NCBI GenBank assembly: GCA_036785375.1
Contig: JAWMAR010000083.1
Location: 930,001 to 994,000, forward strand
From: Leucoraja ocellata
Taxonomy: Eukaryota
DNA: 64,000 nucleotides
Direction: 5' to 3'
Position 1 is the first letter of the stretch; each line of letters opens with the position of its first letter. The notes under the pieces were generated by a model, which saw only the letters and a program-made list of their open reading frames with translations, was not told the DNA's origin and made no database searches. Positions 215-57,390 of the stretch are shown here, piece after piece. The translations under genes were made by a program, and so were the position numbers.

Positions 215-600
215 CAAATATCTTAGAGCAAGCAAGATAGACCACTCCTTCTAAATGCCATAGGCTGACGTGGCGTAGGCAACGGAGCTGAATGTGAGCC
301 TTTTTTTCATCCATTTCAGTAACCCGACCTGACTCGCAGTGTAATCAGCATTGAGGGGGAACAGTTTGTGTTAATAAATTATAATTCTGAAAATGAGAAG
401 ATTTTCCCAAAATAACTTTTATTTTTACGAGGATGTTTCCGTAACCGGCTTCCGTCTCCGCACTAGTATCCTATGGGATCTTTGGTGCGGAGACGGAAGC
501 CGGTTACGGAAATGGGGCCAGAAATTACCCATGAATCTCCCCATGGCCGTACTACGTCTTTTTCGTCGAGTAATCTATCTTGCTTGCTATAGGATCTTTG
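215..600. mobile_element. Non-autonomous DNA transposon (MITE), 26-bp TIRs, 8-bp TSD; P or hAT superfamily
   Basis: Left end CAAATATCTTAGAGCAAGCAAGATAG (215-240); right end reverse-complements to CAAAGATCCTATAGCAAGCAAGATAG (575-600); perfect TSD GGTTTGGG at 207-214 and 601-608; no ORF. Confidence 0.9.
436..512. repeat. Perfect 28-bp inverted repeat with 21-nt loop inside the MITE
   Basis: TTTCCGTAACCGGCTTCCGTCTCCGCAC (436-463) and its reverse complement (485-512); loop ends in GGATCTTTG, like the element terminus. Confidence 0.9.
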
Positions 601-5453: not shown

Positions 5454-5676
5454 TGCCCCTGTCTCACGTAAACCTGAACGGAAACCTCTGGAGACTTTGC
5501 GCCCCACCCAAGGTTTCCGTGCGGTTCCCGGAGGTTGCAGGTGGTTGCCGGAGGTTGCAGGTAGCGGAAGCAGGTAGGGAGACTGACAAACACCTCCGGG
5601 AACCGCACGGAAACCTTGGGTGGGGCGCAAAGTCTCCAGAGGTTTCCGTTCAGGTTTTCTAAGTTGGACAGGGGCA
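5454..5676. mobile_element. PIF/Harbinger-like palindromic MITE
   Basis: ~90-bp near-perfect inverted arms with ends TGCCCCTGTC / GACAGGGGCA; flanked by TTA and TAA (TWA-type target). Confidence 0.8.
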
Positions 5677-7202: not shown

Positions 7203-8321
7203 TCATCCATCCCTACAGTCAACATAATTTCCTTTAATCCAGTAACAAATGTGTGCGTATTTCAGAGGAGTAATCCGAACAGCTACATTGTAATCTTGTT
7301 GAATACCATTCTTATCCACCCACTGGTGACCCGAAAATATTCCAACCACTTTTCGCTCCCATTTCCGAATTTGCCTATTCCACATTCGGATGTAAACACC
7401 TGAACCACTGGCACCTGGCTGAGCATCACATTGCTGATACAGAAGGTCATACGTTTCATCTTTGACCAAGCAGAAACGATAAACAAGATCTCCAGGACGA
7501 TCATTGTCAAAACCAGAAAAGTGAATCCGGCTTCCTGGCAACCTCTCCCGATGAGGAGTCACTCCAATTTTCATGAAGGGTTTCTTATGAGGCCTTTTCA
7601 ATTCCAGAATTGCATAGTCATAATCCATGCCAATATCGTTTGCTGCACCTTTGATCCATCCCTTTGGAATGCGTGACCGCTTCACTCTTATCCAATGGAA
7701 TATAGCTTTTTCTGGAAGAATAGAGTTGATTTGATTTACAGCTCTCCCCATCTCTCTCTGTTCCGGTTTAAAAAATCCAACTTTCATCCTGCGTGCACCC
7801 TTCACGTAATTCTTGCCATCGTGAATACAATGGGCCGCAGTTAGAACGTGCTTCTCAGATACTAAAGTCCCAGAGCAACCCGTGGAGATTTTCACCGAAG
7901 TTGAAAAAGGATAAAGGAACAGGAATTTTCTCGCCATAATGCTAAATCGACTATCCAAACCAAAGATCTGTCTTTTCGTTCTTGCACCATTTCTGCGGTT
8001 TCGTTCATTTCCCAAATCAGCATCAATGAAACCATAGATGTCCACATCCGTGAGAGTTCTGCTTCCATTTAAGAACAAAGTTTCATAAGACAAATATTCT
8101 TTCAGTTTTTCATAGGTTGGCAGAGGTGCTCTTTTGTGACAGTCTAATCCACATGGTGAGGTGACTTTCAGGTTGGTTTTGCCCTCAAAATGTGCATTGT
8201 GCAGTTGGAAAGTTGCCTTCGGATAAACCACAGGTACATAGGTCTTCTGCCATTCATTCTTGTGCATTATCACATACTTAACGCAACAAAGCAAAATGAA
8301 AAGAGTTGGCAAAGCCACCAT
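7203..8321 (-). CDS. PRSS23: Serine protease 23 precursor (372 aa), CDS contained in one exon
   Basis: Signal-like MVALPTLFILLCC; furin site RTKR/QIFG; FSTSVKISTGCSGTLVSEKHVLTAAHC (His), DYDYAILEL (Asp), CDAQPGASGSG (Ser intact, unlike PRSS35); C-terminus YWIKGNYVDCRDG resembles PRSS23; ATG lies 16 nt after a splice acceptor. Confidence 0.95.
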   Translation of the reverse strand: MVALPTLFILLCCVKYVIMHKNEWQKTYVPVVYPKATFQLHNAHFEGKTNLKVTSPCGLDCHKRAPLPTYEKLKEYLSYETLFLNGSRTLTDVDIYGFIDADLGNERNRRNGARTKRQIFGLDSRFSIMARKFLFLYPFSTSVKISTGCSGTLVSEKHVLTAAHCIHDGKNYVKGARRMKVGFFKPEQREMGRAVNQINSILPEKAIFHWIRVKRSRIPKGWIKGAANDIGMDYDYAILELKRPHKKPFMKIGVTPHRERLPGSRIHFSGFDNDRPGDLVYRFCLVKDETYDLLYQQCDAQPGASGSGVYIRMWNRQIRKWERKVVGIFSGHQWVDKNGIQQDYNVAVRITPLKYAHICYWIKGNYVDCRDG

Positions 8322-8337
8322 GCTGATTTGTGATGAA

Positions 8338-8365
8338 CTGTTGAAAAAACAGACTTTTGTTAGTG
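8338..8365 (-). promoter_or_regulatory. Branch point, pyrimidine tract and 3' splice acceptor of the PRSS23 coding exon
   Basis: Minus strand CACTAAC...CTGTTTTTTCAACAG|TTCATC; exon starts at 8337. Confidence 0.85.
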
Positions 8366-9318
8366 ACATTCTTGAACTCCATACTCGCACAGTTTAACAT
8401 AACAGCACTCAAGAAATATTAAATAGGTAGCTCCAGCATTCTACTGACCGACTCCAAATGTTACGTCAATTTCTTTCACTGAGAAATTGCCCATCAGTAA
8501 CCTTAACATTAACAAACCTCAGCTGGGAAAAATATACTTGAATGGCTCATGTTTAAAGTTCTTATGTCAAGTTGTCGCCATAATGGGTCGAAAAACAAGG
8601 TCATCAAATTGAGCTGTTAAGTGCCAAACATTTTATGAACATATTAAAAATAAATGGAATGCAGAAACAATTCTGGAACAGTTCCATGATACAATTTTAT
8701 TTAATTTACACCAACTGTCCAGTCCCATAAGTGCCTACAAAATCAGCAAGGCAGAAAACCAACAGCAATTACTCTTAATTTAACCCGATCTGATTTTAAA
8801 TTAAATTCCACATGCAAGTTCCTTGCAATGTATTTTTCCCTAAGGTAAATGGCCATTCAACTCATATTGCTTCCCTCATGTGGAGCGAGAAATTGAAAGG
8901 GAAACAATTCACAGCAAAATAGTAGATTAAACTGCTGTCATTGGTCACATCTTGCACAATCCATTAAGCAACCTTTGTTTTCCAGTTTTATGACGCACAG
9001 ATTCTGAGCATTTAGTTTTAGCCAAATTTGAGATGGGTGTTTCAGACATTTGATACTTTAATAAAATGTAAACAAAAGGGATGCTGTCTCTCTCACCATC
9101 TGGAAAGAACTAATGTTCCCTTGTCAGTTTTTAGAATGTAGAAATCAATTTATATGAACATTGAAAATAGTCTACAAATCCAAAAGGGTTAAAAATCTGT
9201 ATTGGAAAGAATTTAATGGCCAGTTGGCATTGGAAGAAAAACTTAATTATAAGTAAACAAATATTGTAAATGCTAAAAATCTTAAAGACAAAGTACTAAA
9301 AATAGAGTGCCCTCCATA

Positions 9319-10178: not shown

Positions 10179-10740
10179 TCATGATACAGGGCTCGAAATT
10201 AGCGGTTGCCCGGGTGCCACTGACCACCCAAAGTGCCGCCGGGCAACCTAAACGGCGAGTCATTTTGCCCGGCTTGGCAACTTGGTTTATACCGAAGAGA
10301 CACAAAAAACTGGAGTAACTCCGCGGGTCAGGCAGTATCTCTGCAGAAAAGGAACGCGACGTTTCGTGTCGGCGATGGCTGTCGTGCAGGGCAAAGATAC
10401 TAGGTGCGGGATGACGAACGGTCGGAGCGAATGACGGGCTCCGAACAGCGGCAGCAGCAGCCGCGACAGCGGCTCCACCTCCTCCTCCTCCCGCTACCCA
10501 CCCTGTTAAGGGCCGTTGCTTGCAAACCCGTTAACGACGCATTCAAAACAAACCCTCCCGCACGCCGAGGCCTCCCCTCCCTCCATCCTTCCTGCCTCGG
10601 TGTGCAGGAGGGTTTGTTTTGAAAGCGCCGTTAGCGGATTTGCAAGCAGCGTCCTCTATCAAGGAGGAGGAGATGGAGTCGCTGTAGCTGCCGCTGTGCG
10701 GGACCTGTCATTCGCTCTGACCGTTCTGAAGCAGCTGCAC

Positions 10741-10768
10741 CATAGATCCTATAGCTATAGGATCTTTG
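10741..10768. mobile_element. 28-bp palindromic TIR-only remnant with 8-bp TSD
   Basis: CATAGATCCTATAGCTATAGGATCTTTG flanked by AGCTGCAC at 10733-10740 and 10769-10776. Confidence 0.88.
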
Positions 10769-13813: not shown

Positions 13814-16800
13814 TCTATATATTACTAAAACTATCATCTTGTTTGTTTGGATGTCTGCGTGTGAGTGAGACCCTGAAATTACGCCAAAACGGTACACAAT
13901 AGCGCTACACTTTTTGCACCACCTTACTCACAATGTCTTGTGGTGTGTTTTCATCATGTATCATTCAGACTGATGTTATATTTTGTTATTCGCATTTTTT
14001 ATTTATTTATTTATTATTAGAAGTACGGTAAATTACAATAATACACAACACATATGTCTTAATAAATTTTTTGTACCGCTTCATTTTTTGAGCTTTAAGA
14101 AAAAGATAGAAGTAAAGGAAGTAAGGAAAGTGCGCAAGAGTCGTGAAGGTGCAAAAGAGTGTTGGGAAAAGAAAGCCCCTTAGAAAAGAAGTTAGAGAAG
14201 GAAGTAAAGAAAGAAAGTAGACCCTAGATTAATTTTGTAAAGATATCAAATATTTCATACCAGAATCTTTGGATTTTTGTACAAAAAACAAAAGAATGCA
14301 CTATGGTAGCTTCTTGACACAGACATTTATCACAGATGAGTGAGACATTATGGAAGAGTTTATTTATTTTAGTTTTTGAATAATATAGTCTATGTAATGT
14401 TTTGAATTGGATGAGAGTATGTCGTACGTTGATCGAACATTTATGCACCTGTAGTAAGTGATTATCCCAGCTCTCTTTTGAAATTTTTATAGCTAATTCT
14501 TGTTCCCAGTCTCTTCTAATTCCATCAGTTGTGGGTATTTCTATGTTTAAGATGATGTTATATAGGTACGATATTAGATTAGCTGATTCCGCCTTTGTCT
14601 TCATTGCTTCATCCAGTAAGTCGGTAGGCATATTATGATAGTCTTTTGTATATTTTTTCAGATAATCACGAATTTGAAGATATTTAAAATATTGATTATT
14701 TTTCAAATTATATTTCAGTTGTAGTTGTTGAAATGATAGTAATTTTCCCAATTCATACAGATCTTCGAGCGTTTTGATTCCCATTCTTTCCCATTGTATA
14801 AATTATTTGTCTATAATTGATGGTTTAAATGATGGATTATTAACTATTGGTATTAAGAGATAGGTTTCTTAATTTTAGATTCTGTTTTATTTGTTTCCAT
14901 GTTCTAATTGTGCTATGTATAATTGGATTTTTATTATAATTTTTGTTATTCAAATATATTGGTGAGAGCAGTCCCCTCTTTCCATTACAATCCAGTCCAC
15001 CTGCTGGGCAGAGTTGTCCAGCAGGTGAATCAGATTTTTAATATTTACGGCCCAATTATAATACATAAAATTAGGGAGCGCTAGACCCCCCCAACTCTTT
15101 TTGTTTATTAAGGTGTGCTCTTTGTATTCTATGGGATTTATAATCCCATATAAAATTTGTAATGTCTGAGTCCAATTTTTTGAAAAACTTTTTTGGAAGA
15201 TATATAGGTATTGATTGAAATAGGTATAGGATTTGTGGTAAGAAGATCATTTTTATAGCGTTTATTCTGCCTATTAGGGACATCGGAAGTGTTTTCCAGA
15301 ATGTAATCAAATTATTTAGTTTCTTAAGTAAGGGATTATAATTGGCTTTAAACATATCATGGTAGTTTCTAGTAATTTACATTCCCAGATATTTGAATTT
15401 TTCTGTGGCTATTTTAAAGGGGAATTTCCGGAGGTGTGTTGAGTCTTTTGGTTTTATCGATATAATTTCACTTTTGTTCCAATTTATTCTATATCCTGAG
15501 AAGGATCCAAAGTCCTCAATTAAATTTAATATGTTTGGTATACTAATTTGTGGTTTTGAGATGTACAGTAGTACATCATCGGCGTATAAGGATATTTTGT
15601 TATTTGAATATTTTGTATTATAACCATAAATATCCAGGTGTGTTCTTATTTTTTCAGCGAGGGGTTCAATTACCAGAGCAAATAACAGTGGTGATAGTGA
15701 ACATCCTTGTCTATTGCCCCTTGATAATTCAAATTTCGAGGATAGTATATTATTAGTTAGTATTCTAGCCGTAGGTTTTTTATATAATAGTTTTATCCAT
15801 GCGATGAAGTTCTCTCCCAATTGGAATTTTTGCAATACTTTAATCATATAATCCCATTCTACTTGATCAAACGCTTTTTCTGCGTCCAGTGAGATGATAG
15901 ATAACTCTTGGTCATGAGATTTATGTGAGTGCATTATGTTAAGCAAGCGTCTCAAATTATTGAATGAGTGTCTCTTAGGTATACATCCTGTTTGATCCTC
16001 ATTTATTAGTCTACTAACATACCTGCTTAGTCTTCTGGCTAGTGTTTTCGCTATTATTTTTTGATCCATATTTAACAAAGCAATAGCTCTATATGATCCT
16101 GGTTCTTCTATATTTTTATCTTTTTTAAGTATTAATGTGACCGTTGATTCTGCTAATGTTTCAGGTAAGCTTTGCTCTTTAAAAGCATATGTATACATTT
16201 TATGTAATCGTGGGGTAACTATGTCGTAAAAAGCTTTATAAAATTCATTACTGAATCCGTCTGGTCCTAATGGTTTTCCGTTCTTTAGTATGTTTATTGT
16301 GTCTTCTATCTCCTTCGAAGTAATTTGTGCTCCCAGTTCCTCTTGTTCCCTCAATTCTAACTGTGGGAGGTTACAATTATCCAGAAATTCTGAAACTTTA
16401 TTATTGTCTATTGTCGTTTTAGATGTATATAGATTCTGGTAAAATTGAGCAAATCTTTTATTGATATCCTTGGGTAGTGTTAACAATTCCCCTCTATCTG
16501 ATTTAATCTTTAGTATTGCATTCTCTTTTTCCCGTTTTTTCAATTGGCGTGCTAGAAGTTTGTGGGGTCTGTCCCCGAATTTGAAGTGTTCTTGTTTTGT
16601 AATTTGAAATAGTGTTATAACTTTCTCGGACAATAATTTATTTAGCTTGAATTTCAATAGTAGAATTTTATTATGTTTATCCATAGTTGGATCTTTAGCA
16701 TTATCTGTATCTAATTGTTTTATTTGTTCTTCTAAATGTCTTTGTTCATTCTTATTCTTTTTATTTTGAAAAGCTTGAAATGAAATAATGACTCCTCTAA

Positions 16801-17454
16801 TAAATGCTTTGAAGGATTCCCATAATAGCGTGGGGGATATATCTGGTGTATCATTTATCTCAAAAAATAGGTCCATCTGTTTTTTTAGATACTCCCTTGT
16901 GGGTCTTTTAAAATTTGCGAGTTAATTTTGATAACCCACAATTTTTCAATAAAATTCTGAATATAATTGCAGAATTTAATTATCCAAATAATTTTTAAAG
17001 ATTGGTGTTATTTCACTTTTCTTCTAATATTCTCGTTGGGGGAATAAGCAAATGAATTTGTTCATAACTTCTTGGTGGCGTGTTATTCATATTTTTAACT
17101 TTACAAAATCCAGTTTGAGAAGAATGACTTGCACACAGATGTGTTGCAATCACAGAACGCTGAGTCCTGACAGAGGGAGACCGAACAGGAGAAGGAGGAA
17201 GTGCTGGGCAGGGGAAGTGGAATTGGATTTTTTTTTAAAGTCCTGGCAACAAGTGCTTGCATTTTTTTAAATTTTAAAAAGAGGGAGGATGAAGAGGAGG
17301 GGGAGGGAGTGCCGGGGGATAAGGGGAAATTAGTTGCTCCTATGCAGTTGGGAGCTATGGGTGAGTGGTGGAATATTGGGTTGGGGGAACGGGGATTGCA
17401 TTGGGGGACCAAACCTCCCATGTGACAGGGACCCAACGGGTCCCACTAGTCTAG
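13814..17454 (+). mobile_element. Non-autonomous Helitron interrupted by an L1
   Basis: 5' A|TCTATATATTACTAAAA; 3' hairpin GGGACCC-AAC-GGGTCCC (17428-17444) then CTAG|T at 17451-17455; A/T insertion site with no TSD. Confidence 0.75.
14000..16923 (-). mobile_element. L1-clade LINE, 5'-truncated ORF2 (RT plus C-terminal Cys domain), frameshifted
   Basis: ORFs 15377-16876 (GPDGF, SLDAEKAFD, RQGCSLSPLLF, LYADD, YLG), 15071-15355 and 14224-14784 (CDKC..H..C); A-rich (TAAA)n tail near 14000. Confidence 0.95.
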
Positions 17455-21944: not shown

Positions 21945-22903
21945 AGAATAGTGGGGAGAAAATTAAATCATGGCAATGGAAAGAGCAAGATAAGACTGGT
22001 AAAAATGGTTTAGTGTCAATGGAATTGAAAAGGACAGTCAGGATCTAGAAATTACTGTTTGAAGTAAAATAGTGATGATTATTGGCTTTTGGCTTGGGGG
22101 AAGGAGTGGCTGTAAGAAAGAATAAGAAATAAAATGAACTAGAGAGTATGCTTCACAGTACAGCTGGTTAAAATTTACCTGGTTCAACTGATGGGGAAAG
22201 AGGAATTTCAGTAAACTGGAAGAAATCTCAGACAACCAGAGAAATTGTTCAAGGTGAAGATAGTCACAAAATGTTGGTGTAATTCAGCGGGACAGGCATC
22301 AGTTACTCCAGCATTTTGTGTCTATCTTCAGTTAAAACCATCATCTGCAGTTCCTTCCGACACAAATTGTTCAAGGTGCTGTGTCATGGAACTTGGTGAG
22401 GAGTTGATACAAATGAGGATAAAAAGCACTTGAAGAATCAAAAAACAATAGTATAATTTAAATATTCCAAAAACCCATTCAGTTCATCACACTTGTGCTA
22501 ACTCCCATTGGAGGAGGGGTGAATGCATAAGAAACATTCCATTCTTCTTCTCCTTACTTGAATTTTGCAATTATTTCTTTTTAAAGCACCCAGCCAATTT
22601 ATTTGTGAAAGTTGCCAATTAATCAATTACCATCATTTTTGTACCCAATCAATTCCAGATCATGTCAAAAAGAATTATCTGCATATTTTTTCAATTATTT
22701 GACATCTGTGCCTCCCAGTCACTTGATCTTCCAGTTGGCTAAAACAGTTTTCCCAAAACTATTCACAAGTTTGAACATCACTATGAAAATCTAATATTAC
22801 GAGAACAATACTTCTGGCCACTTGCGTTAATACAATGGGAATGATGATGGCAGCTTATGGGACTTAACTCGCTCTTGGCTAAACTCAGATCCTGATCATG
22901 GTA

Positions 22904-24539
22904 CAGTGCTCTCCATAATGTTTGGGACAAAGACCCATCATTTATTTATTTGCCTCTGTACTCCACAATTTGAGATTTGTAATAGAAATCACATGTGGTT
23001 AAAGTGCACATTGTCAGATTTTAATAAAGGCCATATTTATACATTTTGGTTTCACCATGTAGAATTTACAGCAGAGTCTATACATAGTCCCCCCATTTCA
23101 GGGCACCATAATGTTTGGGTCACAGCAATGTCATATAAATGAAAGTAGTCATGTTTAGTATTTTGTTGCATATCCTTTGCATGCAATGACTATTTGAAGT
23201 CTGCGATTCATGTTGCAGGGTGCTTCTCTGGTGATGCTCTGCCAGGTTTCAATTGCAGCCATCTTTAGTTTATGCTTGTTTTGGGGACTAGTCCCCGTCA
23301 GTTTTCTCTTCAGCACATAAAAGGCATACTCATTGGGTTCAGATCTGGTGATTGACTTGGCCATTCAAGAATTTACCATTTTTTAGCTTTGAAAAACTCC
23401 TTTGTTGCTTTAGCAGTATATTTCGGATCATTGTCTTGCTGTAGAATGAACCGCCGGCCAATGAGTTTTGAGACATTTGTTTGAACTTGAGCAGATAGGA
23501 TATGTCTATACAATTCAAAATTGATTATGCTACTACCGTGTGGTTGTATCATCAATGTATCATCAGTTGTATCATCAATGTAGATAAGTGAGCCAGTACC
23601 TTCAGCAGCCATACAAGCCCAGGCCATAACAACTCCACCACCATGGTTCACAGATGAGGTGGTATGCTTTGGATCTTGGGCAGTTCCTTCTCTGCTCCAA
23701 ACTTTGCTCTTGCCATCAACCTGATATGTTAATCTTCATCTCATCTATCTACAAGTCCTTTTTCCAGAACTGTGGTCGGTCTTTTATGTACTTCCTGGCA
23801 AACTATAACCTGGCCATCCTATTTTTCCAGCTAACCAGTGGTTTGCATCCTGCAGTGTAGCCTCTGTATTTCTGTTCATGAAGTCTTCTGCAGACAGTGG
23901 TCATTGACAAATCCATCCCTGACTCCTGAAGAGTGTTTCTGATAGGTCGGACAGGTGTTTGGGGATTTTTCTTTAGTATAGAGAGAATTCTTCTGTCATC
24001 AGCTGTGGATATCTTCCTTGGCCTGCCAATTCCTTTGCGATTAGTAAGCTCACCAGTGCTCTCTTTCTTCTGAATGATATTCCAAACAGTTGATTTTTGT
24101 AAGCCTAAGATTTGACTGATGTCTCTAACAGTTTTATTCTTGTTTCTCAATCTCATAATGGCTTATTTGACTTTTGTTGGCACAACTTTGGTCTTCATGT
24201 TGATAACAGCAATAAAAGTTTCCAATGGTGATGGAAAGACTGGAAGAAAGACTAGGTGCTGAGAGCTCTCTTATACCTGCATTCAGGAGGCAATTAAACA
24301 CACCTGAACAATTACAAACACCTGTGAAGTCATGTGTCCCTAACATTATGGTGCCCTGAAATGGGGGGGGGGGGGGCATGTATAAACACAGCTGTAATTT
24401 CTACATGGTGAAACCAAAATCTGACAATGTGCATGTTAACCACATGTGATTTTTTTTCTATTACAAATCTCAAATTGAGGATTACAGAGGCAAATAAATA
24501 AATAATGGGTCTTTGTCCCAAACATTATGGAGGACGCTG
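22904..24539 (-). mobile_element. Full-length Tc1-like (IR/DR type) transposon, transposase inactivated
   Basis: TA on both sides; ~215-bp TIRs starting CAGTGCTCTCCATAATGTTTGGGAC with an inner direct repeat; fragmented ORFs with paired-like HTH, GRPRK, QQDNDPKY and SPDLNPMS. Confidence 0.95.
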
Positions 24540-24616
24540 TATGTTTCAATCCTGGGAAAATAGCGTAACCACAACAAAACTCTGAATCATTGTTATCTCT
24601 CAGGATTTGAAAATGG

Positions 24617-25812: not shown

Positions 25813-26200
25813 GGCAGGGAGGTGATTCTTGTTGGATTATTTTCCTATGTACACGAGTTGAAATGTTTCCTGCTCGGTTGTTTATTTTCATGAAGCTGTG
25901 AGAACCGCCCCGGACAACTGCTGGTGCCTGTCCCCACTAAACCTTCAACACAAGTTCCAGGGGAAGTTTATTCCCTGGACTTTCTCCTGGGTCTCGCTGT
26001 GTTGTGTGTGTTCGGCATCACGTGGGTCCAGGCAACGCCCGGCGCTTGAAGCGGACCCTCCCCTCTTGCTCACCACCGCAGCAGCAAAGAATGATCTATC
26101 AGCCTATTGTATAACATCCTGTACTGAACCTGAATTCCACCAGATTGACTGTGTGGTCATTAAATAATCTAATCTAATTTAATCTTTGAGCAGCAGTGTG

Positions 26201-26234
26201 CAAAGATCTTAGAGCAGAGCTTCTAAGATCTTTG
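26201..26234. mobile_element. 34-bp TIR-only remnant with 8-bp TSD
   Basis: CAAAGATCTTAGAGCAGAGCTTCTAAGATCTTTG flanked by GCAGTGTG at 26193-26200 and 26235-26242. Confidence 0.9.
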
Positions 26235-31910: not shown

Positions 31911-32025
31911 TTTTTTTTACTGCAGTTACAGTAAGTGAAAATCTAGCAGGCAAGCAGGATGCTTTCTCCAACCACCCCTATTTGAAGGCTACTATCTTCC
32001 ATCGCTGCTACCCAGTGCTTGATAC

Positions 32026-32186
32026 CTTCTTCCAGCAGCCACTGGTTGTCCTCCAGGATGCACCGAGCTGCAGCCTGATCCATGCCAGTCACCAGAGTGA
32101 ATTTGGCACAGAGACTCTCACAGCAGCGGCACAATGCTTCCGACACCCCCCGACGGCTCGAGACTCTTGCACTGAGGCTGCTCCAT
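32026..32186 (-). pseudogene. TDP2 N-terminal (UBA-like) exon-like fragment, copy B, frameshifted
   Basis: Kozak GCCATGG; MEQPQCKSLEPS/SEALCRCCESLCAKFTLVTGMDQAAARCILEDNQWLLEE then GGTATC; pattern resembles TDP2 RRLLCVEFASVASCDAAVAQCFLAENDWEME (recalled, not searched). Confidence 0.6.
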
Positions 32187-32504
32187 GGCCGGAGCTGCAG
32201 CAAGCAATTCGCCAGCCCGGCAAACACTCGCCAGCCCCAGCTCCCTGTCCCATCCCTCCCTCCGACCCGGCTCTCCAACACCCATGACCAGGTTGCTCAG
32301 AGCACAGCTGCGCCTCGTCCAAAGCATATTGGAACATGTGGAGCCAAAAAAGTGGGCCCCCCCGGTTTTGCGGCCCATGTACCTCTCCTGCCGCTCGCCC
32401 GCCTCGCTCATGTCAGCCGCTTCCCGCAAATCCTTAAATTCCACCTGCCGCCGGGAGCAGGACATGGCTTTACTTACTGCACTGGGTGACACTCATTCAC
32501 TGCC

Positions 32505-32684
32505 TGGTCCTCCAGGATACACCGGGCCGCAGCCTGATCCATGCCGATCACCTGGGCGAATTCGGCCGACATCTTAACGGCAGCGACGCAACGCTTCCGA
32601 CGCCTCCGACGGCCCAGGACTCTTGCACTGTGGCTGCTCCAAAGATAATAGAGGAGCTCCTCTAGTATCTTTGGGCTGCTCCAT
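32505..32684 (-). pseudogene. TDP2 N-terminal (UBA-like) exon-like fragment, copy A, disrupted
   Basis: MEQP[42-bp insertion]QCKSPGPSEASEALRRCR*/SAEFAQVIGMDQAAARCILEDQ. Confidence 0.55.
32640..32673. mobile_element. 34-bp (17+17) palindromic TIR-only remnant with 8-bp TSD
   Basis: CAAAGATAATAGAGGAG|CTCCTCTAGTATCTTTG flanked by GGCTGCTC at 32632-32639 and 32674-32681; empty paralogous site at 32176-32183. Confidence 0.93.
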
Positions 32685-35600
32685 GGCCAGAGCTGCAGCG
32701 AGCGACTCACCAGCCCGGCAAACACTCGCCAGCCCCAGCTCCCCATCCGCATCTGCCCCCGACGCTGCTTACATCCCTCCGTCCGCCCTGCTCGCGAGCA
32801 CCCACGGCCCATGCAGCTGATATGAGTTTTGAATTCTCTTTGATCACAGAATTTCTCATGACAGAGTGTGAAAAATGTGTGATCAGCGTGAGAGCGTGAG
32901 AATTTGACCAAATGCGTGATTCTCACGCTCAATGCATGAGAGGTGGCAGCCCTGTTGGTTTATGCAGTTTTCTTAAATGCTTGTCCTTGTCCGGAGGTAT
33001 CCGGGGTGGCCCTGGGCTGGTGGGGTGGCCCCGGACTTGCAGCAAGCGCTGCAGCAGCTGGCTCCAGCTCGGCTCTGCCTGTCGTGCCGGGTTGGCCGGC
33101 AGCCCTGGACTGGTGGGGTCGTGCCCGGCTCTCCGTTGAGTTGCTGCTAGGCCGTCCCCGTCCCCTCCCCGGTGTCCCGTCCCTGTCCGGAGGTGTCCGG
33201 CAGTGCATGCGGCGCCGGGCCACGGGTTCGATCCTGGCTGTGGATGCGGCATGGACCTGTGCGCTGAGAATGTCTCTCCGCCGGTTTAGTCACTCTCCCT
33301 CTCCCACTAGCATCTGCCCCTGCTCTCCCGCTACCTTGCACCCCCGTTCCTCAGATTAAATATATTTTTACACATAAATCATGAATAAAGATAAGAATTA
33401 ACATACAGTTTATGTAGCCAGCGCTTCGTTCACTTTTTCTTTATAGCGAGTGACCTTTGACAAATCCCATGATTCCTTGCGTTTTTCGGAATACTGAACT
33501 CGCTTATTGCTCACAGTGCTCCAGATCTGGTGCTTTGCAGGGGTTGCAAACCTTCCACCTCCTCATATCCAGTCATCCAGATTTAAACCTGTTAATCTTT
33601 TTGATTAATTTTAGTTCAAAAAAGGGTCCTGACCTGAAATGTCACCTATCTTTCTCCTTTCAATTACAATCAGTCTGAAGAAGGATCTAAACCCGAAATT
33701 TCACCTAGTCCTTTTCTTCATCGATGCTGCCTCACCCGCTGAGTTTCTCCAGCATTTTTGTCTACCTTTGATTTCTCCAGCATCTTTCTTAAACGTCCTG
33801 TCTCGAAATGTCACCTCCACAGATGCTGCCTGACCTACTGATTTTCTCCAGTATTGTTGATTATTTTATATGCTCGTCTATGACATTGGTATAATTAGCA
33901 GATAAGAACTGCTAAATCTTTTAGAACCTCCAATTCATGATTTAGAGAGCATAATGTTCTATCTTTAATGGTTACAAATCTAACGATCCAAAATTTGGTT
34001 ATATTTAAACTCATTTGTCTCAATCCTTCTTATTTAATTATTATTCTTTGTCATTTATTGGTGCCATCTACATTACCTAAAATGGCACCTATAATTTGAT
34101 TTATGGATTTCCATTCCATTACCGAAATAATTTATAGATATGGTGAATGATTGTCATCTAAAGGTGATTCCTTGGGGAACACCAGGAGTCACATCATACT
34201 GATTTGCTCACTTGGCCACTATTTCAGCAATCTGTCTCCTATCATTCTGCTGATTTCAAACTTAAATCAAGAAATCATTTTCACTCCCATGAAACCAAAA
34301 ATCTCATAGTTTCATTCAACTGCAGAGCAATGCTGCATTAAATGACAGGAATGCCACCAGTCACTTAAGCTACATATAAACGTTCAAGGGTCAGCCCTTG
34401 TAAAGATGATCAACATCAATGTGAACATGAAAGATCCAAGAAGAACACCGTAAATACGGAGATTGATAAAAATCATTGTAGATCGGCAATTCAAAAATGA
34501 TCAGGCATGACTTACCCTTTACAACTCTAGGCTACCCGCTTATCACCTGCCAAAAATATTTAATTATCGGTAGTTGAACCACAAGGTTTGGATTCATAGC
34601 GGATATTGTGTCAGTGCTGCCTGTGTTATTCTGTATCTAAAAGTGTCCACTGTGAGAAGCATGCTGTTTAGTTCTGCTACTGCTATTCAACACAGCAGTT
34701 AATGCCATATTTAATCACACATAGCAGCGCACATGTTCAGCAGCAAAAAATAACTCCATCACCAATGGCATTTCGTTCCCCAACTACTCTTGCGTTAGTT
34801 GCTGATTGATTTTTGCTGACTGTTACAGTGATTGAATGTTTGTGCTCTCTAATTATTGAAATCTGTCAACATCTCTTGGGGAGTCTGTGTAAGGAATTGA
34901 AAGTCTAGGTTAGGTCCTAATTTCATAGGTTCTGCAGTTACTTTCTAACATAGGTCAGTTTCTTGGTGCTTCCGATAGCAAAAGAGGATAAACTATTAGA
35001 ATGAACTGCAGGAGGGAGGAGATTTTTCAGAGAGCAATTCCCCTACCTGTATCGCAACAACAAACAGTATGTGAGATGTCTACAGCTGCAGCATTCCTCG
35101 TTGGAATCTGCTACCTGCTCTACCTTTGCAGAGCAGAGATTGTATTGTCAGTGATTATGTACTTTTATTTGTCTGCCTGCTTTTATATTGGAGATGGAGA
35201 TACTCATAGGTTCTCCGCTCTTTTGTTAAAGAGTTCCGTCACTCTCCACTCAAAGCAGCTAACTGCACTGTATGGTCTCTCATCGGTGATCAGACATTGA
35301 GGAAAGCTAGTTTTTCCATTATGCATAGGAAGGAACCGCAGATGCTAGTTTAAACCGAAAATAGACACAAAAAGCCGGAGTAACTCAGCAGATCAGACAG
35401 CATCTCTGGAGAAAAGGAATACTGTAGGTGATGTTTAGGATCAAGACCCTTCTTCCCCTGACTCTCAGTCTGAAGAAACGTCTCCAGAGATGCTGCCTAG
35501 AAAAATAGAGAATTTTAATGGTTCACTATCTGCTGAATGAAGGCATTTTTTCATCATCTCCATCTTAAACAGTTTACCCCTTGTTGTCAAATTGTGCCTT

Positions 35601-40767: not shown

Positions 40768-42860
40768 GTAATAATAATAATCATAATACATTTTATTTAT
40801 GGGCGCCTTTCATGAGTCTCAAGGACCCTTACAAAAATTTAGCAGGTAGAGGAAAAACATGTAAGGGGAATGAAATAAATAGTAGAGACATGACTAGTAC
40901 ACAAAGTAAAGACAGAATTCAATTCAAAACACAATATGAGGCAATTAATGCACAGATGAAAAGGGAGGGGGACGTGGGGCTAAGGCTAGGCAGAGGTGAA
41001 GAGATGGGTCTTGAGGCGGGACTGGAAGATGGTGAGGGACACAGAATTGCGGATCAGTTGGGGAAGGGAGTTCCAGAGCCTGGGAGCTGCCCTGGAGAAG
41101 GCTCTGTCCCCAAAACTGCGGAGGTTGGACTTGTGGATGAAGAGGAGACCGGCTGATGTGGATCTGAGGGACCGTGAGGGTTGGTAGGGGGAGAGGAGGT
41201 CAGTGAGATTATGGGGGGGGGCAGATGGTGGAGGGCTTTGTAGGTGAGGATCAGGATTTTGTAGGTAATCCGGTGGGAGATGGGAAGCCAGTGAACTTGT
41301 TTGAGGACTAGAGTGATGTGATGGCAGGATTTGGTGTGGGTGATGAGTCGGGCGGCAGCGTTCTAGACCAATTGGAGTCGGTTGATGTAGGTGGAGCTGA
41401 TGCCAAGGAGAAGTGAGTTGCAGTAGTCCGGTCGGGAGGAGATGAAGGCATGGATGAGTCTTTCAGCAGCGGGAGGTGTGAGAGAGGGTCTGAATTTGGC
41501 GATGTTGCGGAGATGAAAGAAGGAGGTTTTAATGAAATGGCGGATGTGAGGCTCAAGGGAAAGGGTGGAATCAAAGATCACGCCAAGGTTGCGGGCCTGG
41601 GGAGATGGGGAGACAGTGGTGCCGTCGATGGTGAGAGTGGGGTTATTGATTTTGCTGAGTGTGGCTTTTGAGTCTGGGTGTCATCAGCGTAACAGTGGAA
41701 GTCCAAGTTGAAGTGGCGGAGTATCTGACCACGGGGGAGGATGTAGATGATGAAGAGGAGGGAGCCGAGTACGGAGCCTTGGGGAACGCCTTGAGTGACT
41801 GTGGCTGTAGCAGAGGTGTGGTTGTGGAGAGAGATGAAGTGGGATCTGTTGGAAAGGTAGGAACGGAGCCAGCTGAGTGCAGAGCCTCCTATGCCGAGGT
41901 ATTTGAGTCTGGTGAGCAGGATGTTATGGTTCGCTGTATCGAAGGCTGCGCTCAGGTCGAGGAGGATGAGGATGTTGAGGGAACCAGTGTCAGCAGAGGT
42001 GAGGAGGTCGTTGAGGACTTTGAGGAGAGCAGTTTCTGTGCTTTGGAGGGGGCGAAAGCCAGATTAGAGGGGTTCAAGTAGATTATACGCAAGGAGGTGG
42101 GAATGAAGTTGCGACGCAACGATACGCTCCAGGGTTTTTGAAAGAAAGGGGAGGTTTGAGATTGGGCGGTAGTTAATGATAGAGGAGGGATCAAGACCAG
42201 GTTTCTTTATGATTGGTGTAACAGCAGCAGTTTTGAAAGCGGAGGGGACAATGAGGAGTTGAAGAGATTAGTGAGGTTGGGGCAGAGAACGGGGAGTCAG
42301 GACTTCAGCAGGGGAGTGGGGAGAGGTTCGAGGGAGCAGGTAGTGGGTTTGGAAGAGCTGATGAGTTTGGAGATTTCAGTAGGGGTGACCAGGTCAAACT
42401 GGGAGAGGAAGCAGTGTGGAGGAGGGGTAAGGAGGTCAGTGGAGATGTTGAAAGGAGGGGCCTTGGTAGGTGATGGAGTAGATGCTGGGGAGTCGGGAAC
42501 AGGGGATAAAGATTGATAGATGGTGCTGATTTTATCAGCGAAAAAGTGGAGGAATGAGTTGCAGAGATCCGGAGTAGAGGTAGGGAGAGTGGTGGCTCGA
42601 GGCTTGAGGAGGTTGCCCAATGTGGAGAAGAGGGTTCTGTGGTTTAGGCAGGGATCGGTGAATATGGAGGGGAGGTAGGCAGATTTTGCAGCAATGAGGG
42701 CATCTTTGTAGTCAGTGAGGTGGAGGTTGTAAGCTTCAAGGTGGACTGTGAGAGATGATTTATTTGTGAGTCGTGCAAGTCGGCGACCAGTCTGTTTCAG
42801 TTTACGAAGTGCAGGTGTGTACCAGGGTGAAGATGTGTTGAAAGTTATGGTTCTTGTTTT
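40768..42860 (-). mobile_element. L2-clade LINE, 5'-truncated and internally deleted
   Basis: (TTA)n tail; NLGVIFDSTLSLEPHI...ERLIHAFISSRPDYCNSLL; NYRPISNLPFLSK; QSGFRP; GVPQGSVLGPLLFIIY. Confidence 0.9.
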
Positions 42861-42870
42861 GGGGTAGACT

Positions 42871-44045
42871 CAGGGCTCGAAATTAACGGTTGTCCGGGTG
42901 CCATTGACCACTCAAAGCGCAGCTGGGCAACTAAACACCGAGTCATTTTGCCCGGCTTGGCAACCAGATACTGCCCCGCACTGATTCACACACACTCCCT
43001 TCACTGACCCTATTGTCCTGGAAATGTCTTCAGAGCGAATATTGACTATGTTTGATAACAGAATACAATCAAATGTGTTTTAATTCCCAATGTTATTATT
43101 TGTTTTAATCCATAAAGATGGATTAATTAAATTGTGAACACATGGAACATTAATACTGCAGTGTTCGATTGTGACTGCTGCCGTTGACACGTTATTACAG
43201 AATTCATTTTAATGGCAAATCAATGCTCTTAATATGGAGTATCAGTACTGTAGTTATTTAATGAGCAACATTCACAACTATACGTACGCATATATGTTAC
43301 CATGGTCCAGGAATTATTGACACAGGTTGATCATACGCTGAATAATCCAACCACATTTTTGCTTGTAAGTGGAAAGAACTAATAGAAATTGCATTAACTG
43401 CAATGTGTAAAAAGAGTTGAGATACTGTCTTATAATTTTGCTGCATGTCATTGTGGGACAATTTTAATTCCCAATGTTGTTATTTGTTTTAATCCATGAA
43501 GATGGATTAATTAAATTGTGAACACATTAAACATTAAAACCGCAGTGTTCGATTGTCACTGCTACCGTTGACATGTTATTACAGAATTCATTTTAACGGC
43601 TCTTAATATGGAGTATCAGCACTGTAGTTATTTAATGAGCAACATTCACAACTATACGTACGCATATATGTTATCATGGTCCAGGATTTATTGACACAGG
43701 TTGATCATACACTGAATAATCCAACCATATTTTTGTTTGGAAGTGGAAAGAACTAATAGAAATTGCATTAATTGCAATATGTAAAAAGAGTTGAGATACT
43801 GTCTTATAATTTTGCTGCATGTCATTGTGGGATATATCATGTCTTGATTGGTGAATGTGTAGTTTGTGACTTTATTTGAAGCAGAAATAATATCCCACGG
43901 GTAATTACGCGCTTCGTCCGAGCACATTATCGAACGCGTCATGCAAGCCATCTTAAATGACCGCCTAAACTGTCATTTGGCAACCTAAAAAGCTGCCAAG
44001 GTTGCCCGGCTGGCAACAGGGGAAAAAAGTTAAGCAAGAGCCCTG
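42871..44045. mobile_element. Non-autonomous TIR transposon (same family as 10187-12877) with ~380-bp internal tandem duplication
   Basis: CAGGGCTCG...GAGCCCTG; GTAGACT duplicated at 42864-42870 and 44046-44052; repeat units ~43078-43460 and ~43461-43830. Confidence 0.88.
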
Positions 44046-54878: not shown

Positions 54879-54904
54879 CAAAGATCTTTAGCAGAGGATC
54901 TTTG
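54879..54904. mobile_element. 26-bp TIR-only remnant with 8-bp TSD
   Basis: CAAAGATCTTTAGCAGAGGATCTTTG flanked by ATGTCAAC at 54871-54878 and 54905-54912. Confidence 0.88.
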
Positions 54905-56712
54905 ATGTCAACATTTGAAACATGGAAGATGGACACGAAAGAAGAAGATCCAGCATAACGATGGCAGGACTCCAAACCTGACTAGCAACTAACAGCTTTT
55001 ATGGCAGCAGTGCTTCAGTCTGTGCTTCAGTTCTGACCTGTGCCTGCGATTGATTTGTGTGTTCCCACATATATAATAAGAAGAAGCTGAGAGACGGGAG
55101 CAATTGAGATCGTTGCAACATATCTCATCTACGGGCCAACACTGGGAGGAAAATCAAGAAAAACTTAAGCAAAGTAAGTTGCCAGTAAAAAAACTTGTTT
55201 TATCCAGTTTGTAAATAATTTTTCTAAAGTAGACATATCATCATTAAAATGAGCATCAGAACTAGAAGGCCGGGCTGCAAAATATATATAAAATATAGTT
55301 TTTTTTTTAAGCGGCGGCTATATATTATGCCATAAAGGACCAATAGATTCAGCAGCTCCTAATAATTGGGACATGAACCCACTAATCTAAACTGGCAAAT
55401 CCTGGACATGCTGGACATGGAAAATAAAACCAAAATTTTGAAATAGGCAGCTCTCAGGCAGCATCCCTAGAGAGAGAAAAAGTTTGATCAGACTTTCAAT
55501 TCAGATCAGACTTCCAAATCCTAACATTTCAATTCTTGGCCAAACAGAGCGTTAATTTTTTTCTGAATAAATCGTGTGCAGGACATTCAAATATTTTGAG
55601 GAACTTCCAGTTGCTTTCAACGAAGGCTTCCATCTCTATCACTTTGCACTATTATTGTTTTGTTGCAACATTATTGTTTTTATATATGCACTGATGTTTT
55701 TTTGGTTATTATTGGTGGTTACAGAGTTCTATGTATGCATATCTGTTGTGCTGCTGCAGGTAAGAATTTATTTTTCCCGTTTCAGGACATATGACAGTAA
55801 AATCCTCTTGAGTCTAAACTTTCTCGCGTCTGTGTTGTATTTTAATGCTTTACTGAATTGGCAGAGGTGGAACAAGAGGATATCGTTCATCTGCTTGAGC
55901 TTGTTCTGTGTTCAGCAAGATGATGACAAATCATCCACTGCAACACCTATGCCTTATTCCCATACTCCCTTGAGTTCCCACATTTACAATATCTGTTTTG
56001 ACTGCTATCAATGACTTGACCTTCACCGCTGTATTCCGAATATTCACCACCCTCCAAGTGAAGATATTTCTCCTCATTTCAGTCCTAATGGATCAACCCA
56101 TTTGTTTTGAGATTCTCACTGTTAGTTCCAGAATCTTTAGCCAAGAGAAAGTGGTGGCTGAGAGATCTATTTGTGTGCTGTATATCTTTATGCTCCATGA
56201 GAAGCATCCTTCCTACATCTATACCTTAATGTGTTTCACTAAATGTGTTTCACATCCTCTAAATTCAAGAGAATTGAGGCCTCAGTAACCCTAATCTAAT
56301 CTCCTCAATCTCTTCTTGATAAACCTGCTGTTGCACAAATCCATAATTCTTTAAGTATATAAGGCAGAATTGTGCACAACGTTACAGTGGTAACGTTGTG
56401 CACAATTCAAGGCCCTGTATAATTTCAAATACGTAATCTCTACATCAAAGGCCAACATGCCATTTAGCTTTCCTAATTGCCTAGTGTACTTGCATGTTAG
56501 ATTTCAATGATTTATGTACAAGGATATCCAGGTCCCTTTTAATAGCCTCTAACCACTTTAAAATATTTGACATTTTTGTTTTTTCTACTAAAGTAAATAA
56601 ACTCATCTTTTCCCACATTGTAATCAATCTGCCATGTTGTTGTCCACTTTCTTAATGGTCTGCATGCCAATGAACTGTGTTTGCATTCTCAACACACATT
56701 CCATTACTTTTA

Positions 56713-57390
56713 AGGGCCTGTCCCGCTTACGTGTCCTTGGCACGCAAATTACGCAACCTCGTGGTCGCGATGAGGCGCACGGGCATCATATGGCTGCGTG
56801 GGGCCGGTCCCACTGAGAAGCGCGGATGGGTATGTAGTTGTGCGCGACATCGCGCAGGGCTCCGAAATTTTTGTAGCGAACGAAATCTTCGCGCGCCAAC
56901 GGCCTGTCAAGGAGCTGACGGCCAAAGTCCAAGACCCTGGCGCGACGCAACGTCTCACCTCCAACAGCAGCAGAACCAGGCAAACGATCGCCGAACTTGG
57001 CCTGGGGCTCACGGCCGTTGCGGTCCGGATCCGCTCCCACTTCTACTCCCAGAGCGGGGCCAAGAAAATTGAAGATGGACACAAAATGCAGGAGTAACTC
57101 AGCGGGACCGGCAGCATCTCTGGAGAGAAGCAATGGGTGATGTTTCGGGTCAAGACCATTCTTTTCAGACTGAAGAAGAGTCTCGACACGAAACATCACC
57201 CATTGCTTCTCTCCAGAGATGCTGCCGGTCCCGCTGAGTTACTCCAGCTTTGTGTCCATGTTCAAATGACGTCACGCACTCCAGACAGCTGTACTACACA
57301 TTAAATCGTGCGCGACCTTCGCGGGACCGTCGCGGGACCGTCGTGGTCGCGTAATTTACGTGCCAAGGACACATAAGTGGGACACGCCCT
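56713..57390. mobile_element. PIF/Harbinger-like MITE containing a palindromic Penelope-derived repeat
   Basis: ~45-bp TIRs AGGGCCTGTCCCGCTTACGTGTCCTTGGCACG / CGTGCCAAGGACACATAAGTGGGACACGCCCT; TAA/TTA flanks. Confidence 0.8.
57075..57259. repeat. Inverted pair of Penelope-derived units, each with a hammerhead-like core
   Basis: ~75-bp near-perfect arms; centre TTCAGACTGAAGAAG. Confidence 0.8.

Follow-up and report, generated by a model that had tools for sequence, protein, structure and literature searches.

What process placed a 34-bp palindrome between two copies of the same octamer, directly after the start codon of a degenerate gene fragment of the skate Leucoraja ocellata? We addressed this question in the whole 64,000-nucleotide stretch that surrounds it (hereafter the window; assembly GCA_036785375.1, contig JAWMAR010000083.1, positions 930,001 to 994,000). 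The palindrome is one of four insertions with an 8-bp target-site duplication (TSD) and a content derived from terminal inverted repeats (TIRs); an intact element of the parent type, a MITE, is present as well, and in all four insertions the truncation lies well inside the TIR. We consider it probable that a P-type cut-and-paste transposon with a long stagger left the 34-bp palindrome as a scar at its donor site, i.e., that a transposase excised the element and left long 3' tails, which were subsequently fused by end joining.

The focal insert and its TDP2-like host

The focal insert (32640-32673; Table 1) is a palindrome: 16 of the 17 positions in one half are complementary to the other half, and an exact duplication of GGCTGCTC brackets the whole. 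A previous sequence-only reading had described precisely this structure, a 34-bp palindrome with one mismatch inside a perfect 8-bp duplication; its coordinates were exact and the same complementarity was found again in our analysis. The surrounding DNA consists of two tandem degenerate TDP2-like first exons on the minus strand (31991-32769), and a possible splice donor ends the first of these, copy A. The TDP2 identity of the duplicated segment is based on a match to a TDP2 chain in PDB and on the similarity to the TDP2 of the little skate (E 4e-10), which matches the window significantly only with its residues 1-68, at both copies, and of which the first eight residues are those of the empty copy A. 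Copy A also shows a match to the UBA_4 domain of Pfam (E 0.0011), which is under the curated cut-off. No other TDP2 exon matched significantly elsewhere in the 64-kb window.

The two host copies share 82% identity in 205 columns free of gaps. When they are aligned across the insert site, a 42-nt gap is seen in copy A, which carries GGCTGCTC only once. Scar and TSD together (34 + 8 = 42 nt) correspond to 14 codons, placed in frame directly after the start codon of copy B. Because the empty state is encountered twice, in the paralogous copy and in the TDP2 of the little skate, it is taken as ancestral, and the 34-bp insert is derived. The alignment, hence, agrees with the earlier claim that the single octamer without an insert at this site reveals an insertion scar, and little-skate TDP2 provides a second witness of the empty state.

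Table 1. Positions in the window of the focal insert, its host copies, the other short inserts and the parent-type element.
Feature	Position	Strand	Remarks
Intact 386-bp non-autonomous element (MITE), parent type of the putative scars	215..600	.	Same ends, TIRs, 8-bp TSD
Candidate one-sided fifth scar	10392..10403	+	12-nt match, without mismatch, to the start of the focal right arm; flanks agree at 6/8
Putative sister scar, 28 bp, exact 8-bp TSD	10741..10768	.	TIR positions 1-15 from each end, central GC common to both
Putative asymmetric sister scar of 34 bp with exact 8-bp TSD	26201..26234	.	17 + 4-nt filler + 13, or about 20 + 13
Host copy A, insert-free degenerate TDP2-like first-exon fragment	31991..32272	-	UBA_4 and TDP2 matches
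Empty paralogous target site, one copy of the octamer	32176..32183	+	Alignment; little-skate TDP2 likewise empty
Host copy B, degenerate TDP2-like first-exon fragment carrying the putative scar	32507..32769	-	Start codon at 32684
Left TSD copy, GGCTGCTC	32632..32639	+	Identical to 32674-32681
Left transposon-end remnant	32640..32656	+	17 nt; 18 nt when both arms are taken to include the central GC
Right transposon-end remnant	32657..32673	-	17 nt, or 18 nt; 16/17 identical to the left arm
Right TSD copy, GGCTGCTC	32674..32681	+	Exact copy of 32632-32639
Putative sister scar, 26 bp, exact 8-bp TSD	54879..54904	.	About 17 + 10 (one 1-nt deletion), or 14 + 14 sharing GC

Sister inserts and a parent-type element

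A scan of the 64-kb window that used no end motif, and required an insert of 16-60 bp, an exact 8-bp direct repeat and complementarity of at least 7 of the 8 terminal bases, returned five matches, four of which have a CAWAGAT end: the focal insert and those at 10741-10768, 26201-26234 and 54879-54904. Local second-order Markov resampling of the window (100 times) yielded a mean of 0.02 and a maximum of 1 match, and not once a match with a CANAG end. A chance origin of the four was rejected since their paired, TSD-bounded form is enriched, although the 7-mer end motif alone is not (35 matches vs 26.3 expected, with 35 reached in 10 of 100 shuffles). The four short inserts (26, 28, 34, and 34 bp) all differ from each other in length or sequence. 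In the sequence-only reading they were called genome-wide footprints, four in 64 kb; the number was confirmed by the motif-free scan, and "genome-wide" is an extrapolation from one window. Their density equals 62 per Mb (95% interval 17-160), which for a skate assembly of 2.2 Gb (PMC10115646) would amount to roughly 40,000-350,000 scars, a range that is biased upward as the window was chosen for its scars.

The fifth match of the scan (56379-56396) was dropped since it is the centre of a plain hairpin and its "TSD" is itself palindromic. A short hairpin with perfect arms and a 4-nt loop occupies 56371-56404, in AT-rich surroundings and outside the CAWAGAT-end family. Located 12 bp upstream of the insert at 26201 is a 104-bp stretch with weakly family-like ends (26085-26188); this stretch, of which the flanks match at 7/8 in a CAG-rich tract, was discarded because its ends are family-like over 5-7 nt only. 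Positions 10392-10768 form a large imperfect hairpin (arms about 10416-10726) with the insert at 10741 at one end and the candidate one-sided scar at the mirror position; 12-mers like the latter are expected by chance 0.013 times, in a comparison made post hoc. As a single element, 10392-10768 was rejected, since its outer flanks mismatch whereas 10741-10768 has an exact TSD. Hairpin-like inverted repeats also occur at 5470-5657 (66 nt, perfect) and 57081-57255 (83 nt, 92%), and a tandem duplication of 374 bp (92% identical) is present at 43078-43832. A structured RNA gene was not found in the window by Rfam at gathering thresholds.

The intact MITE, which was absent from the sequence-only reading and is new in this analysis, has TIRs of 33 bp (215-247 and 568-600) that are 85% identical, an exact 8-bp TSD (207-214 and 601-608) and no Pfam match. 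Because this element possesses the same ends and an 8-bp TSD, the short inserts consist of two transposon ends. A loose end profile was built from the ten ends of the five elements. Exact 8-bp flanks were present in five (0.10 expected) of the 5,179 family-like end pairs 12-20,000 bp apart; these five are included by construction and the TSD test is independent of the profile. The sizes of the exact-TSD elements are 26, 28, 34, 34, and 386 bp, and the range from 35 to 385 bp is empty. Another five end pairs, separated by 2.7-7 kb and with one mismatch between their flanks, were dismissed as chance (5 seen, 2.3 expected), and an end pair of 399 bp was dropped because of two flank mismatches. 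Within the window, a 9-mer of TIR positions 18-26 occurs solely in the MITE; the distal TIR is kept by none of the four short inserts. Inside the MITE, a near-perfect hairpin (436-512) has a loop that resembles a degenerate join of two family ends, with flanks that are inverted and not direct; this could be a subterminal repeat or a join of same-side flanks from sister chromatids.

Because their left and right arms match the MITE TIRs at only 13 of 17 (with one or the other TIR matched) and 14 of 17 positions, respectively, the focal remnants derive from a subfamily related to the MITE, the exact parent being absent from the 64-kb window. Positions 8-17 of the right arm (32657-32666) are identical to a 10-nt word in the TIR of the medaka element Izanagi (PMC2820524), a similarity noticed by eye and post hoc.

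Junction anatomy and the origin of the short inserts

The P transposase of Drosophila cuts at the 3' tips and, on the other strand, 17 nt inside the element, and the donor site retains 17-nt 3' tails (PMC7776569). The repair of such sites is documented by 66 excision isolates, counted in Table 1 of a study of Rad51-mutant flies (PMC2895639). Symmetric joins of 30 or 32 bp, made close to the tips of the tails through a self-complementary microhomology of 2 nt, make up 19 of these, fillers are present in 18, and both templated fillers and asymmetric joins occur (PMC2895639). A full 17+17 blunt join is found in none of the 66, and once in Table 3 of the same study.

The short inserts of the skate resemble these footprints in having two short TIR remnants (from a TIR of about 31-33 bp), intact 8-bp TSDs and a total length of 26-34 bp, and also in their 2-nt self-complementary microhomology joins, asymmetric joins and short templated fillers. 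The insert at 10741 is the exact 28-bp product that is predicted when the tails are joined at the GC of TIR positions 14-15 (15+15, with a microhomology of 2 nt). All four inserts can be read within arms of 17 nt; the focal insert, that at 26201 and possibly that at 54879 can also be read with arms of 18-20 nt, and the left arm of 26201 aligns to about TIR position 19-20 with one gap. The focal junction fits both a 17+17 blunt join and an 18+18 join with a common GC because its centre is AGCT, so that both yield the same 34 bases, and because its own parent TIR is absent from the window. The rarity of blunt 17+17 joins in flies would somewhat favour a tail longer than 17 nt for the focal scar. 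The Drosophila footprints differ in that they stem from experiments in which the transposase is known and its 17-nt cut has been measured, whereas those of the skate would be fixed natural scars in a vertebrate with an inferred cut; furthermore, the end sequences are unrelated and the skate arms may run to 18-20 nt.

These comparisons bear on several claims of the sequence-only reading. Its view that the junction anatomy is like that of Drosophila P donor-site repair and unlike that of hAT elements is upheld by the TIR-derived content and the intact TSDs on both sides. It further held that the footprint is made of ends of about 17 nt and records a 17-nt cut: the truncation inside the TIR stands and all four inserts are compatible with a cap at 17 nt, but the value is not fixed by them, readings of 18-20 nt being equal for two or three of them, and a blunt 17+17 join has no counterpart among the 66 isolates of the fly table. 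Finally, it regarded many identical mini-copies as a sign against footprints. In this single 64-kb window the four inserts all differ, and the criterion itself is unsound: because microhomology joins recur (14 of the 66 fly isolates are identical; PMC2895639), many identical mini-copies would be compatible with an origin as footprints and would not speak for direct mobility of the mini-units.

As a donor scar, the focal insert would have arisen as follows. An element with CAAAGAT ends entered the TDP2-like pseudo-exon and produced the 8-bp duplication, a step that is directly visible in the sequence. By analogy with the chemistry of Drosophila P, transposase would then have cleaved the transferred strands at the ends of the element and their complements about 17-20 nt further in, within the TIRs; these staggered cuts would have left each flank with a long 3' tail of TIR sequence. 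Judging from the four junctions, the tails would be fused by end joining, either blunt, at the 2-nt self-complementary GC, or with a short templated filler. The scars would be inert dead ends, as 17-nt cuts from both sides of a unit of at most 34 bp leave no duplex to carry. Some observations argue against an origin as donor scars. The sample is four scars, and the ratio of scar to intact element, 4:1, is high for excision products. Within the window no locus occurs in both the full and the scar state, and neither the window ORFs nor the protein search revealed a transposase that ties the skate family to P. The full 17+17 blunt join is rare in flies, for which the data come from Rad51 mutants, and 3-4 of the 17 positions of each focal arm disagree with the MITE TIRs.

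Alternatively, the short inserts may represent extreme internal deletions of the MITE, formed either when homology-directed gap repair aborted after excision or when replication slipped over the folded element, and closed at GC microhomologies. The length of the arms would then be set by the location of AGC in the TIR and not by the cut of an enzyme, and the parent could be either P or hAT. This would account for the fact that each of the four junctions can be read as lying on a GC dinucleotide, which the MITE TIR carries at positions 14-15 and 18-19, and for arms longer than 17 nt such as the left arm of 26201; indeed, the reach past position 17 (26201, possibly 54879) fits aborted gap repair as well as it fits a longer stagger. 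Moreover, the MITE folds strongly (z -8.7) and gap repair has been proposed as the source of internal deletions in P-MITEs (PMC1562414). However, among elements with an exact TSD the size range of 35-385 bp is empty, and TIR positions 21-33 are lost in all four cases although a loop-out at the stem end should retain them. A random deletion in a 386-bp element would place both of its ends 12-20 nt from the tips with a probability of only ~0.001, a rough estimate as some arms are maybe 10 nt. We regard internal deletion, the main rival of the donor-scar reading, as unlikely.

It seems much less plausible still that the palindromes of 26-34 bp are mobile in their own right, as ultra-short elements whose direct insertion creates the 8-bp duplications. 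Every short insert does have an exact TSD, the short inserts outnumber the intact element 4:1, and the comparison of an empty with a filled site cannot by itself separate direct insertion from insertion followed by excision. The four units are, however, heterogeneous in length and sequence, and in units of 26, 28, and 34 bp the two 17-nt cuts of a P-type enzyme would leave no duplex at all (0 bp or less). For steric reasons, any transposase would be unlikely to pair two ends only 30 bp apart. In addition, P ends need internal transposase-binding sites (PMC7776569), Drosophila P requires end sequences of 138 and 216 bp, and P-MITEs of Anopheles are no smaller than 205 bp (PMC1562414).

Superfamily assignment, relatives and implications

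The donor-scar interpretation raises the question of the superfamily to which the parent element belongs. All five elements, i.e., the four putative scars and the MITE, have an exact 8-bp TSD, in line with the 7-8 bp of the P superfamily, and the CA...TG termini and 33-bp TIR fit that superfamily (about 27-33 bp) as well. Nine of the ten ends begin with CAAAG or CATAG, the latter at 10741, and the left end of the MITE begins with CAAAT. The terminal rule is CANRG for the P superfamily and YARNG for hAT elements. YARNG has also been given for P elements (PMC2820524). CATAG (10741) and CAAAT (215) do not fit YARNG; because CAAAG fits both CANRG and YARNG, the terminal rule appears to leave P and hAT undivided. 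The TIR and TSD lengths of the skate family match those of P elements and P-MITEs (27-31 bp TIRs, 8-bp TSD; PMC1562414, PMC3698922). A TSD of 8 bp is not exclusive to P, since hobo, a hAT element, makes one too (PMC3276498).

The target patterns of fly P and hobo elements have been published (PMC3276498). The five TSDs match the P consensus GTCCGGAC, which is that of the fly, at only 2-4 of 8 positions per site, with G1/C8 at 6 of 10. The hobo pattern NTNNNNAN, which may not hold for all hAT elements, is not evident in these five sites, as T2/A7 occurs at 3 of 10 positions vs 2.9 by chance. The TSDs are GC-rich (24 of 40 vs 42% in the window, P 0.016, five sites). The excision of hAT (Ac/Ds, hobo) and MULE (Muta1) elements proceeds through flank hairpins and leaves flank-derived palindromes or deletions as footprints (PMC5873905, PMC5499845). 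These share with the skate inserts the 8-bp TSD (hobo) and a potentially palindromic form, whereas the skate palindromes consist of TIR sequence, with both TSD copies intact. A hAT-like parent (8-bp TSD, YARNG end) whose enzyme or repair would leave long remnants of the TIRs in a way so far undescribed is, with such known footprints and with TSDs that lack the T2/A7 pattern, the least credible explanation of all, even if CAAAG fits YARNG, hobo makes 8-bp TSDs and the sole CATAG end, at 10741, may be a point mutation.

The sequence-only reading had attributed the footprints to a P-like family, which could not be established: CAAAG fits both rules, and Pfam detected no P, THAP, or hAT domain in 217 of the 218 window ORFs of at least 70 aa (the protease ORF was left out), a scan that is blind to shorter or frameshifted remains of a transposase. 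The matches obtained were limited to LINE reverse transcriptase, a Tc1-type HTH, UBA-like domains and a few sub-threshold cases. A protein search with the ORF spanning the MITE yielded one candidate and none at E 0.01, which is weak evidence. The protease ORF (7203-8393, minus strand) is an intact single-exon gene of the serine protease 23 type, 95% identical to a protein of Rhinoraja longicauda and, for the next cartilaginous fish, 74-83%. Other mobile elements in the window are a Tc1/mariner element with inverted arms of 87 nt and a broken transposase (22902-24541), a second Tc1-type fragment (1634-1927) and LINE reverse transcriptase remains (15377-16921 and 41578-42063). Taken together, the skate scars likely work like a P donor scar, and we consider their family a probable member of the P superfamily.

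Among vertebrates, P elements are known from zebrafish (PMC10983969) and medaka (PMC2820524, PMC7599744). Medaka Izanagi, a non-autonomous P element of 1.3 kb with a degenerate THAP domain (PMC2820524), shares CA...TG ends and an 8-bp TSD with the skate family and has a TIR of 27 bp; it differs from the MITE in its size and THAP remnant, and scars are not mentioned for it in the available text of PMC2820524. Zebrafish Pdre2 also has an 8-bp TSD, CA...TG ends and internally deleted copies. Its TIR, however, is 13 bp long and of other sequence, and excision by zfTHAP9, an active enzyme, resulted in larger flanking deletions in a cell assay (PMC10983969), which speaks against the donor-scar reading; no stagger length for zfTHAP9 is reported in the available text of that paper. 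The P-MITEs of Anopheles gambiae (205-2450 bp) resemble the skate family in their P-type TIRs, 8-bp TSDs and several subfamilies with diverged ends; they differ in that autonomous partners are known, and the word "footprint" is absent from the main text of the paper (PMC1562414).

The type of scar is, thus, already known from experiments with flies, and P MITEs are already known from teleosts. Among the matches listed for the open full-text literature, none described natural P-type scars in a vertebrate, nor this skate family; the 386-bp MITE may already be catalogued in Dfam or Repbase. Two skate genome papers treat, in their available text, Tc1/mariner elements and LINEs and not P (PMC12361510, PMC10115646), and none of six superfamily names was found in the readable supplements of the former.

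The P transposase is peculiar above all for its long staggered cut. The figure of 17 nt is attributed to the Drosophila enzyme and is not settled for the P/THAP9 relatives in vertebrates (PMC10983969, PMC7776569). If the short inserts are donor scars, the skate genome could yield thousands of natural excision junctions, which would measure the stagger and reveal how the vertebrate germline joins long non-complementary tails. They would also point to a P family in skates as a possible source of a new transposase, and add a class of insertions of 26-34 bp that is likely missed by repeat masking and able to enter reading frames. More speculatively, a P-type transposase of cartilaginous fish might cut with a stagger of 18-20 nt, longer than the 17 nt of Drosophila, and have left tens of thousands or more of fixed scars in skate genomes, an idea that we put forward as a doubtful one. 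If true, the arm-length cut-off of each subfamily would be a fossil record of cleavage geometry and of vertebrate germline end joining, and would provide such a measure for the first time for a P enzyme other than that of Drosophila.
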